This document shows, in pieces, positions 42,084 to 49,249 of a DNA stretch of 64,000 bases (the stretch's first letter is position 1; each line of letters begins with the position of its first letter). Position numbers and translations under genes: made by a program. The stretch lies in contig JANNVQ010000001.1 in assembly GCA_031414535.1 (NCBI GenBank), positions 30,744 through 94,743 of the forward strand. Reading direction: 5' to 3'. The notes under the pieces were generated by a model. That model worked only from the letters and a program-made list of their open reading frames with translations. It ran no database searches and was not told the DNA's origin. This stretch comes from Gemmatimonas sp. GTDB lineage: Bacteria > Gemmatimonadota > Gemmatimonadetes > Gemmatimonadales > Gemmatimonadaceae.

Positions 42084-42709
42084 CATCCGGCCACTTCGTG
42101 TCCAATCGTGATGAATCGCCGCGTCTGTTCATGACGCCGTGGCTAGAACGGCTCTCGCACGTACATCCCGCGGTGCCGATCCTGCTCTATGCGCCGGTCA
42201 TAGCATTCTTTACGTGGCGCGCATTGGCAACGTCGAGCTTGCTGGGAACCCTAAGTCAGCTCTTGGCTGGACTGCTCGTGTGGACCCTCGTCGAGTACGC
42301 CTTGCATCGCTGGGTGTTCCACTACGAGCCGACAACGACGTGGGGGCAGCGTATCCATTTTCTCTCGCACGGTGTGCATCACGACTACCCGCGTGACAGC
42401 ACGCGCTTGGTCATGCCACCCGCGGTCAGCCTGCCTCTCGCGGTGCTGTTCTGGGCGAGCTTCAGCCTGCTCACGACACGGTACGCCGATGGGCTGTTCG
42501 CAGGTTTCGTACTCGGATACCTGATGTACGACATGATTCACTTCGCCACCCACCACTGGCCAATGCACGGTCGGATTGGGCGCGCACTCAAGCGCTACCA
42601 CCTCTTGCATCACTACGACGACGACGACGCAGGTTTCGGTGTGAGCTCGCCACTGTGGGATGCCGTGTTCGGAACCCTACCGCGCCGGCGCCAAGGCGCG
42701 AAAAGCTAG
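42080..42709 (+). CDS. Fatty acid 2-hydroxylase (FA2H/Scs7-like)
   Basis: His boxes EYALHRWVFH, HGVHHDYP.D..RLVMPP, YDMIHFATHH and KRYHLLHHY; GFGVSSPLWD.VFGT. Confidence 0.88.
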   Translation: MTSGHFVSNRDESPRLFMTPWLERLSHVHPAVPILLYAPVIAFFTWRALATSSLLGTLSQLLAGLLVWTLVEYALHRWVFHYEPTTTWGQRIHFLSHGVHHDYPRDSTRLVMPPAVSLPLAVLFWASFSLLTTRYADGLFAGFVLGYLMYDMIHFATHHWPMHGRIGRALKRYHLLHHYDDDDAGFGVSSPLWDAVFGTLPRRRQGAKS

Positions 42710-43836
42710 TGGAATCGGTCGTTGTAGCCTTCGCCGCGCCAGTGGATCGGGCGCTTGCTGAGCAACGAGACGGCGAGAATCGGTAGCATCACGACCTGTA
42801 CGAGCTGAAGGAGCAGCGGCTCGTAGAACCGCAGGTGACTGCCCGCACGACGCGCTTGGGTTCCCAACAACCAAACGTCGGCTAGGCACTTCGCGGCGAC
42901 AACGAGAGCCCAGGGAATGAGCGCTAAGCGCCAGCCCAACAGCATTAGGGCCGCGACGACCGTCCCCCACAGGATCGCGGCCGCGAGCCCCAATGCGTAT
43001 CGCCAGTCCTGGGCCACGCCACCGCCTAGGAAGCGTCGCATCTGGCTCAGCAAATGCGCGGGCGATGGGACGGGCGTGAGCACCGCCGCAGTCTCTGGGT
43101 CAAGGTAGTTCTGCATTGTGCCCCCGTCCGCCGTTGCCAAGTGGAAGAGCGTCAGGTCTTCGGCCACTCGTCCCGGTACTGCCTGCAAACCGCCGCCGCG
43201 CTCATACGCGCTGCGCCTGATTCCCATGTTTGGGCCAACCGCCGCAACTGCCGCGCCCCAGCCAGCGAGGCCGTGGTTGATTGGCTGCAGCATCAAGTTC
43301 AGTACCCGCTCGGCGGCGCCCCACCATTGCCGTGGCTCCACGAGAACCGTGCCGCCCACAACGGTGTCCTCACACGTGGCAGCGCCAATCATGTGCCGCA
43401 CCCACTTGGGCGGCACCGCAGCATCCGCGTCCGTGATCAACACCCACGCTCCAGTGGCATGCGCAAAGCCATGAGCGATGCCGCGCGCCTTGGCTGCGAG
43501 CCCGTTGTCGGGGAGCGCAGACGTGTGGAGCGCGAGCACGTGCGGATGCGCACGGGCGACGGCGTCAATCAATGCTCCGGTTCCGTCAGTGGAGCGATCG
43601 TTGACGAGCACCAGCTGCAGCATGCCCGCTGGATACTCCAGCGCCAACAAGGCCGCGAGACAGCGCGGCAGATCACGCTCCTCATTCCGTGCGCTGACCA
43701 CCACCGTCACGGCAGGCGCCTGCGCATCGCTGATGGATCGTGAGCGCGCGAGCCGACGAATGCCAAGCACCAAGACCACAACCGCGAGCGGGTAAATGCC
43801 GACACAGACCAGCATAGCGATTACGAGCGGATCCAC
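42706..43836 (-). CDS. Membrane GT2 glycosyltransferase, candidate ceramide glycosyltransferase
   Basis: N-terminal TM; VSARNEE, VNDRSTD, ITDAD, AEDL and QMRRF (QxxRW-like); last gene of the SPT operon. Confidence 0.8.
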   Translation of the reverse strand: MDPLVIAMLVCVGIYPLAVVVLVLGIRRLARSRSISDAQAPAVTVVVSARNEERDLPRCLAALLALEYPAGMLQLVLVNDRSTDGTGALIDAVARAHPHVLALHTSALPDNGLAAKARGIAHGFAHATGAWVLITDADAAVPPKWVRHMIGAATCEDTVVGGTVLVEPRQWWGAAERVLNLMLQPINHGLAGWGAAVAAVGPNMGIRRSAYERGGGLQAVPGRVAEDLTLFHLATADGGTMQNYLDPETAAVLTPVPSPAHLLSQMRRFLGGGVAQDWRYALGLAAAILWGTVVAALMLLGWRLALIPWALVVAAKCLADVWLLGTQARRAGSHLRFYEPLLLQLVQVVMLPILAVSLLSKRPIHWRGEGYNDRFH

Positions 43837-48900: not shown

Positions 48901-49249
48901 CACGACGCGGGTTGGGCGGATACGCGGGAACGGCAACGACGCCGGCATAGAGGCAGGCGAAGAACGCCGTCACGTAATCCAGCCCAGGCGGAACCAACAG
49001 CACCACACGGTCCCCGGGAATTGTCCGATCGCCGAGCCGAACGGCGAGGGCGCGCGCGCGCGCCTGCAGCTCGCCGAACGTGCGGGTACCGCGGGTCTCT
49101 CCGTCACCGCCAAGGAACGTGAACACCTCCTGCTCACCCTGTCGCAGGCTGCGGTATTCAAGTACGTCCACTAGGGTTTGCACCCGCGCCTGCAGGGCGT
49201 CGTCGGCTCGGAGTTCCACCGATGAAAAATGCACCTGTGGCACGGCCAT
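45932..49249 (-). CDS. Fatty acyl-AMP ligase - ACP - alpha-oxoamine synthase (serine palmitoyltransferase-like) fusion
   Basis: FAAL: [84 protein letters not shown], GTLSK. Confidence 0.9.
   Translation of the reverse strand: [1105 protein letters not shown]

Follow-up and report, generated by a model that had tools for sequence, protein, structure and literature searches.

The 64,000-nt stretch of Gemmatimonas sp. DNA analyzed here (GenBank assembly GCA_031414535.1, contig JANNVQ010000001.1, positions 30,744 to 94,743 of the forward strand; hereafter the window) encodes a protein in which a fatty acyl-AMP ligase (FAAL), an acyl carrier protein (ACP) as well as a pyridoxal 5'-phosphate (PLP)-dependent alpha-oxoamine synthase (AOS) are joined in one chain. 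We conclude that this fusion is probably the entry enzyme of ceramide synthesis, with 3-ketosphinganine, made from free fatty acid, ATP and L-serine, as its likely product. A serine palmitoyltransferase (SPT) function is proposed because of the relatedness of its PLP domain to PfSgaB of Pseudomonas fluorescens MYb115 and because of its genomic context, at the head of genes for a bCerS-like N-acyltransferase (GNAT), a CerR-like short-chain dehydrogenase/reductase (SDR) and a family 2 glycosyltransferase (GT2). Feature coordinates are collected in Table 1.

Architecture of the fusion and its operon

The open reading frame (ORF) is free of internal stops, and three Pfam domains match above cut-off: AMP-binding (residues 37-429), PP-binding (609-672) and Aminotran_1_2 (742-1085). 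The motifs LGLDSL (with Ser637), DEAHS (Asp907 and His910) and GTLSK (Lys942) are present. These results bear out the first-pass annotation, which had described a 1105-aa triple fusion followed by tightly packed or overlapping GNAT, SDR and GT2 genes. The GNAT gene (GTG start) overlaps the 3' end of the fusion by 41 nt, the SDR gene starts 10 nt past the GNAT stop, and the abutting GT2 gene starts either at 43836 (GTG, overlapping the SDR gene) or at 43815 (ATG) and ends at 42706. Lys570, Ser637, His834, Asp907, His910, Lys942 and Arg1066, whose catalytic roles we assume from those of their families, are invariant across the 89/89 aligned fusions, as is Asp636 beside Ser637.

The fusion is not an assembly artefact, since its three-domain layout is common to 120/120 best homologues (54-93% identity, 94-100% coverage) and FAAL and AOS share a single ORF at 25/80 related loci. 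The nearest named loci are from Gemmatimonadota. A structure model built on an alignment of 89 sequences (mean pLDDT 88; low-confidence linkers at residues 596-599 and 677-692) replaced a single-sequence prediction (pLDDT 35), and reaches a TM-score of 0.95 to FAAL structures (7R7F) and 0.94 to S. multivorum SPT. The composition of the locus, at the codon and tetranucleotide levels, fits the rest of the genome and gives no signal of recent horizontal acquisition. Among 36 genomes of the same genus, many of them incomplete, only one carries the fusion. A promoter/terminator scan returned counts near those of shuffled sequence (3 vs 2.0; 16 vs 10.9 +/- 3.3) and was not used. No RNA run covering the locus was listed, which bears neither way on its expression.

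Identity of the PLP domain

Trees of the PLP domain were built from 113 sequences and from a 24-sequence subset. Rows of the large tree were mostly gathered by similarity to the query, with the Pseudomonas and RkpG rows taken from a separate collection, and PfSgaB is represented by a close Pseudomonas plasmid homologue (locus L102). In both trees the domain falls within the SgaB/RkpG/WcbT clade, beside proteins linked to polyketide synthases (PKS), with SH-aLRT support of 100. Approximately unbiased (AU) tests rejected three other placements: a canonical Spt grouped with Bacteroidetes/proteobacterial Spts (p 2e-59), a converted lineage-own enzyme grouped with Gemmatimonadota stand-alone Spt (p 4e-120), and a BioF (p 4e-48). 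The earlier reading of this domain as Spt, with a phylogeny proposed as its check, is retained with a correction: the domain belongs to the clade of PfSgaB, a serine-specific SPT, but is not a canonical Spt. Its scores are below the curated Spt cut-offs (NF047600, 291/640 bits; NF047599, 276/500; NF047603, 202/670) and also below that for Kbl.

Identity is highest to SgaB-type proteins: 55.6% to a Pseudomonas plasmid SgaB-like protein that follows a type I PKS and 50% to Sinorhizobium RkpG, vs 33-38% to canonical Spts, BioF and Kbl (38% to the Gemmatimonadota stand-alone Spt). Compared by eye with Fig. S6 of PMC12134224, the domain matches PfSgaB at 203/360 positions without gaps (~56%), and the motif ARVRFFVS is among the identical stretches. 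All PLP-site residues of SgaB/RkpG-type enzymes (stacking His, Asp, His, Schiff-base Lys and carboxylate Arg) are present. On these comparisons the domain is assigned as an SgaB/RkpG/WcbT-type AOS. PfSgaB condenses acyl-CoA almost only with L-serine, and alanine and glycine are excluded (PMC12134224).

The FAAL-ACP loading module

The closest solved relative of the FAAL domain is the starter FAAL of the Synechococcus olefin synthase (OLS) PKS (7R7E-G; 487 bits, TM 0.95), whereas the E. coli FAAL scores 266 bits. Profiles for FAALs give 300-420 bits on the N-terminal domain, vs 188 for the fatty acyl-CoA ligase (FACL) profile NF004837, and residues 350-390 align to 7R7G without gaps, which we take to show the FAAL insertion. 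The N-terminal domain is accordingly predicted to be a FAAL, nearer to FAALs than to acyl-CoA ligases in sequence and modeled fold. It is 34% identical to E. coli AasR, which lies outside its group in the tree, and the ACP shows marginal likeness to AcpR. We considered and rejected an origin by joining of aasR, acpR and spt, because the FAAL is closer to the OLS starter FAAL than to the E. coli FAAL; the AOS also belongs to another clade. As predicted from its domains, the fusion is a starter of the PKS/nonribosomal peptide synthetase (NRPS) style joined to an SgaB-type synthase. A gene for an Sfp-type phosphopantetheinyl transferase (PPTase) lies on another contig of the source genome, and one lies beside the fusion in 9/15 related loci (representatives scanned).

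Operon partners and distribution

The GNAT aligns with E. coli YghO/aca over 381 aa (33% identity, E 1.5e-62). The SDR is 28% identical to E. coli ECD_02852/epi (E 1.5e-23) and 31% identical to the SDR of the standard spt-GNAT-SDR operon (E 3e-32), and gave no match when compared with SgaC-type SDR. According to PMC9386255, YghO is the aca/bCerS counterpart and ECD_02852 the epi/CerR counterpart in E. coli. With full-length YghO homology and the linkage to Spt described below, the GNAT belongs to the bCerS/YghO family, and homology to ECD_02852 together with operon position places the SDR in the CerR/epi family. A GNAT is present in 13/14 named Gemmatimonadota fusion loci and a CerR-like SDR in 12/14. 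The GT2 is equivalently placed in loci L001, L002, L003 and L134, and its solved relatives are weak ones only.

Distribution was counted in a phylum sample of 201 Gemmatimonadota genomes and in an unbiased family sample of 301 genomes. One unpublished genome (G155) enters only the denominators of these tallies, and locus-derived counts are kept apart from family-sample counts, with which they may share assemblies. In the phylum sample, GNAT occurs in 133/201 genomes and a Bacteroidetes-type Spt (458-561 bits) in 119/201, and Spt lies directly upstream of GNAT in 118 of these 119. The fusion occupies Spt's place ahead of GNAT, which, with the YghO and ECD_02852 homologies, upholds the earlier assignment of these genes to a ceramide operon. 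The standard spt-bCerS-cerR operon with Bacteroidetes-type Spt is found in 95/97 genomes of one family (e.g., L089-L098). Its presence in 119/201 genomes suggests that ceramide synthesis is common across Gemmatimonadota.

All 15 fusion-bearing Gemmatimonadota genomes, for one of which completeness is known, carry a GNAT, and their Spt matches stay at or below 347 bits. In the family sample, the SgaB-type domain occurs in 21/301 genomes (all in long frames) and the standard Spt in 37/301, never together; most of these genomes carry neither. GNATs that accompany a fusion group in a clade apart (support 100, 16 rows), which indicates that fusion and GNAT were inherited together and leaves an in-place swap of the synthase within a standard operon unsupported. 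The source genome holds two oxoamine synthases, the second of which lies beside tdh and groups with Kbl.

Predicted pathway and alternative readings

In the pathway we propose, the Sfp-type PPTase encoded elsewhere in the genome would prime Ser637, and the FAAL would adenylate a long-chain fatty acid and, with no need for acyl-CoA, load it onto the ACP tethered to it. Condensation of the acyl-ACP with serine, and release of the keto base, would fall to the PLP domain, which is probably dimeric, as PfSgaB is. The GNAT would N-acylate this base and the SDR reduce C3, in either order. Scs7-like and DES-like enzymes would then hydroxylate or desaturate the product, and GT2 enzymes and a CEPT-like transferase would attach head groups. 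Transfer would thus run as an assembly line, which might select a dedicated acyl chain. Seen in evolutionary terms, the fusion would be a hybrid in which an SPT associated with PKS, together with a loading module of PKS type, feeds the canonical bCerS/CerR pathway, a task that most Gemmatimonadota leave to a stand-alone Spt.

Several observations weigh against this reading, here and in the paragraphs below. GNAT and SDR are only 28-33% identical to characterized enzymes. The SDR begins directly with its nucleotide-binding motif, unlike Caulobacter CerR, which is periplasmic according to bioRxiv 2023.11.08.566215, so the sequence of reactions and their location may not be the same. The mutual exclusion of fusion and standard Spt in the family sample is weak taken alone (p 0.06; by genus 0.24). 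GNAT is absent from the flanks examined at 11 planctomycete fusion loci, although it is found elsewhere in the genome in 11/11. One of nine further fusion loci (L129) has a frame break in the FAAL; there, the FAAL part of the fusion homologue (genome G345, L129:5450-7152) spans two frames, by sequencing error or because the gene is broken.

Some bacterial SPTs are relaxed in their choice of amino acid. The same assembly line and downstream enzymes could yield 1-deoxy bases from alanine or glycine, or capnine from cysteate, which we regard as unlikely. Such a choice would suit a PLP domain that falls below every canonical Spt cut-off and belongs to a clade with a single experimentally characterized member, PfSgaB. 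Some positions flanking the active site vary among fusions, and the residues just before the last conserved arginine, PMLPPS in the fusion vs PILYPA in PfSgaB, could alter specificity. However, PfSgaB, which shares its core motifs with the fusion, excludes alanine and glycine, and the capnine synthase structure scores 152 bits vs 230 for S. multivorum SPT. The neighboring GT2 and CDP-alcohol transferase would also require a C1 hydroxyl, which serine alone would supply.

It is distinctly unlikely that the product is, as with RkpG/WcbT, a sphingoid-type lipid that anchors a capsule or a surface glycan and not a bulk membrane ceramide. The nearest named relatives of the PLP domain, from Pseudomonas and Sinorhizobium, are located in capsule loci, and the operon has Wzi-like, ABC-transporter and several glycosyltransferase genes on its flanks. 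Yet homologues of KpsC, KpsS and LTA synthase of the Pseudomonas locus were not found in the source genome, and in place of an SgaC-type SDR the operon has bCerS- and CerR-like genes. The anchor and ceramide readings are compatible, in that a glycosylceramide could be the anchor.

Release of an amino-ketone or amino-alcohol as a free metabolite, with GNAT and SDR acting on another substrate, is very improbable. The FAAL-ACP part does resemble lipopeptide/PKS starter modules (NF004282, 517 bits), and cyanobacterial members of the SgaB/RkpG clade come without a ceramide synthase (GNAT in 0/3 genomes). Against this stand the overlap of GNAT with the fusion, its recurrence at named fusion loci and after Spt in standard operons, and the fusion-specific GNAT clade. 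A BioF (8-amino-7-oxononanoate synthase) joined to a pimelate-activating module is hardly credible: JGI labels many homologues as such, and the BioF model TIGR00858 is the top PLP-domain profile (355 bits vs a cut-off of 426), but the AU test rejects the grouping, bioB and bioD have no match reaching cut-off in the 98%-complete source genome, and no biotin genes occur near any fusion locus examined.

A linked phosphonate cassette

Beyond the ceramide operon proper, a complete cassette for a 2-aminoethylphosphonate (AEP) phosphonolipid lies at 33044-38608 of the window. It comprises PEP mutase (Ppm), phosphonopyruvate decarboxylase (Ppd), AEP transaminase, PntC and a CDP-alcohol transferase. 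Ppm carries EDKxxxxxNS, which we take to be its signature motif. PntC makes CMP-AEP (PMC6697681). According to PMC8942020, a similar gene set marks clusters for which 1-hydroxy-AEP lipids are the predicted products, and a phosphonosphingolipid with 1-hydroxy-AEP is known from B. stolpii.

The only significant solved relatives of the CDP-alcohol transferase are eukaryotic CHPT1/CEPT1. This CEPT-like enzyme occurs in 6/301 genomes of the family sample, in five genera, and all six carry the fusion (naive p 6e-8, by genus 3e-6, with kin not independent). The whole cassette lies directly upstream of fusion and GNAT in G477 and 3 kb from GNAT in G202; gene order in G201 is as here, and in G209 and G329 cassette and fusion operon are on separate contigs. 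In G203, transferase and PntC stand beside the operon with no Ppm match, so that a phosphate ester would serve as head group there. The cassette is missing from most other fusion loci, and 12/15 have a PAP2_3 gene instead, which was not found in the source genome; the two transferase types may be alternative ceramide head-group enzymes. The PntC/LicC-like gene adjoins the fusion operon also in L003 and L134, and the 2-oxoglutarate oxygenase-like gene accompanies the fusion in L002, L128 and L134. A truncated-looking second oxygenase copy (63% identical) lies just left of the window (contig C1 of the source genome, 30300-30824).

From this linkage we tentatively suggest that the 27-kb region might encode every step by which a bacterium would turn free fatty acid into a ceramide phosphonolipid. 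Ceramide would come from the fused synthase together with bCerS and CerR, Scs7-like and DES-like enzymes would introduce eukaryote-like hydroxylation and desaturation, and the CEPT-like enzyme would attach the (1-hydroxy-)AEP made by the Ppm cassette. The fusion would then be a modular scaffold, of which a 1650-aa variant would introduce the Delta4 double bond of sphingosine while the chain is still on the carrier, ahead of condensation. Against this extension, diacylglycerol or a glycan could just as well be the acceptor of AEP.

The variant (~1650 aa), with an acyl-CoA-dehydrogenase domain between FAAL and ACP, is found in three genomes of one genus (L081:5606-10549, L131 and L132). A trans-2-enoyl carrier would give a Delta4-unsaturated base, which fits the sphingoid reading, and no Lipid_DES protein was found in the one variant genome searched.

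Relation to known systems

PfSgaA/SgaB/SgaC of P. fluorescens MYb115 (PMC12134224), with the homologous RkpA/RkpG and WcbR/WcbT, share the PLP clade with the fusion, and in both systems a dedicated module would supply the acyl group as a thioester bound to its carrier. The Pseudomonas system has an adjacent iterative type I PKS (SgaA) and a KDSR-type SDR (SgaC), neither of which is present at the fusion locus. Here the FAAL-ACP module is in cis, no PKS occurs in the window, and bCerS- and CerR-like partners stand where the Pseudomonas system has a KDSR-type SDR and capsule genes, for which reason we expect the product to be N-acylated.

In Caulobacter crescentus and E. coli BL21(DE3), AasR-AcpR-Spt act with epi/CerR and aca/bCerS (PMC9386255). 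The logic is alike (fatty acid activated, loaded onto a dedicated ACP and condensed with serine), but the fusion puts the three functions in one chain, and none of its domains groups with its proteobacterial counterpart. The standard Gemmatimonadota operon shares the GNAT and SDR families and a synthase ahead of GNAT; its ~400-aa Spt has no linked FAAL or ACP in the 12 loci examined. The 'Burkholderiales_CDP-OH' (Group 1) clusters (PMC8942020) comprise a Ppm-PntC fusion, Ppd, AEP transaminase, second PntC, 2-oxoglutarate oxygenase and CDP-alcohol transferase, all of which have counterparts in the window. The window differs from them in the physical linkage of the cassette to ceramide genes and in having a CEPT-like transferase, one that occurs among fusion carriers only. 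PMC11334938 delineates a broader Spt-like clade, with 138 planctomycete genomes and with links to bCerS and CerR; its text uses neither "fused" nor "fusion".

No description of a FAAL-ACP-AOS protein or of Gemmatimonadota sphingolipids was found in the searchable full-text literature, a scope outside which most subscription papers fall. The chemistry and all of the parts are known, while in the literature searched we found no account of the architecture, of its pairing with bCerS/CerR or of the link to a phosphonate cassette. With the fusion, the entry step of the ordinary bCerS/CerR pathway would fall to an SgaB-type SPT, a third lineage that until now has been demonstrated only alongside polyketide synthases. 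Surveys of sphingolipid producers may miss such fusions in Gemmatimonadota and Planctomycetota, because databases name them 8-amino-7-oxononanoate synthase and they score below the Spt cut-offs. If one chain does convert free fatty acid, ATP and serine to a sphingoid base, the protein would be convenient for biocatalysis and would allow carrier channeling to be tested directly. The possible phosphonosphingolipid link is a fresher lead than the fusion itself: the linked cassette makes bacterial attachment of phosphonate to ceramide testable with one candidate enzyme, and the ceramide-phosphonolipid reading, if true, names the enzyme that places the phosphonate head.

Neighboring genes and other loci

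Table 1. Features of the ceramide locus and linked genes, in window coordinates.
Feature	Position	Strand	Basis
FAAL-ACP-AOS (SgaB-type SPT) fusion, 1105 aa	45932..49249	-	ORF, Pfam, trees, model
FAAL domain, ~residues 22-592, P-loop TSGSTG, Lys570, predicted PKS/NRPS starter type	47474..49186	-	best solved relative 7R7E-G
ACP domain, ~residues 601-674, phosphopantetheine site Ser637	47228..47449	-	PF00550 above cut-off
PLP AOS domain, SgaB/RkpG clade; His834, Asp907, His910, Lys942, Arg1066	45971..47176	-	identities, trees
bCerS/YghO-like N-acyltransferase (GNAT), 386 aa	44812..45972	-	33% to E. coli YghO; one match in source genome
CerR/epi-like extended SDR reductase, 326 aa	43821..44801	-	28% to E. 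coli ECD_02852
Membrane GT2 glycosyltransferase; candidate glycosylceramide synthase	42706..43836	-	PF00535, PF13506 partial
Scs7/FA2H-like sphingolipid fatty-acid hydroxylase	42080..42709	+	yeast Scs7 E 7e-32; four His boxes
DEGS-like sphingolipid Delta4-desaturase/C4-hydroxylase	54272..55237	-	Lipid_DES 53 bits + FA_desaturase
Second membrane GT2	52841..54241	-	Pfam
Omp85-like outer-membrane protein, co-oriented	49282..51057	-	ESM Atlas 0.99 to Omp85/POTRA clusters (lead only)
Alkaline-phosphatase-superfamily membrane protein, GPI ethanolamine-phosphate transferase-like	29390..31393	+	ESM Atlas 0.90-0.97 (lead)
CEPT/CHPT-like CDP-alcohol phosphotransferase; candidate head-group transferase	33044..34060	-	CHPT1/CEPT1 E 7e-10
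PEP mutase fused to PntC-like nucleotidyltransferase	34106..35710	+	PF13714 + PF12804; EDKxxxxxNS motif
Phosphonopyruvate decarboxylase-like TPP enzyme	35650..36831	+	Pfam; context
AEP transaminase-like class V aminotransferase	36828..37889	+	Pfam; context
PntC/LicC-like cytidylyltransferase	37886..38608	+	PF12804
Fe/2-oxoglutarate oxygenase-like; candidate phosphonate C1 hydroxylase	27950..28672	+	HalD E 4e-12, BesD E 4e-4

The Scs7-like gene is convergent with the GT2 gene, with a 4-nt overlap. The Lipid_DES desaturase gene lies 5 kb upstream of the fusion here and directly upstream in L002 and L134. It is no constant partner of the fusion (4/34 genomes searched), and no solved relative of its product was found. 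The second membrane GT2 is near pathway genes in L001, L046, L120 and L125, and the alkaline-phosphatase-superfamily gene accompanies the fusion in L002, L003, L128 and L134. The Omp85-like gene is 32 nt upstream of the fusion; Pfam gave no matches on its product.

A Wzi-like outer-membrane protein (window 40383-42083) and an MsbA-like ABC transporter (51031-52872, start approximate) flank the operon and possibly serve lipid or glycan export. Genes for a LicD-like phosphotransferase (32241-33224), an FkbM-type methyltransferase (31401-32144) and a SAM methyltransferase (55268-55924) flank the cluster and recur close to it in related genomes. On contig C14 of the source genome (G000:C14:197957-208400), an NRPS-like gene and a type I PKS occur with hydrolase and polysaccharide genes; this NRPS-PKS was inspected as an acyl source and looks unrelated.

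Relatives of the AOS domain occur in other arrangements. Ten Myxococcota loci (L027, L029, L032, L039, L040, L044, L049, L054, L062 and L063) hold a FAAL and a 2100-2300-aa protein ending in a domain of the fusion's AOS clade, together with divergent bCerS-like GNATs (two in several). A verrucomicrobial locus (L046:8669-12539) encodes a stand-alone SgaB-type AOS, sister to the Gemmatimonadota fusions, with an ACP, a bCerS-like GNAT, a Lipid_DES desaturase and GT2s. In cyanobacteria (L004-L026 and L035-L078), the fusion's AOS clade is represented by proteins of 440-550 aa, often with FAAL genes in the vicinity. At two fusion loci, a FabF-like ketosynthase gene directly follows that of the bCerS-like GNAT (L120:8984-10261 and L134:10502-11317) and possibly supplies a special acyl chain.

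Elsewhere in the window, a 392-aa lipoprotein is followed by a DUF5723/TraF_2-like outer-membrane barrel (56020-58500), and three large secreted repeat-rich proteins, BNR/VPS10-like by appearance, lie in a row with an amidase (3095-14965).

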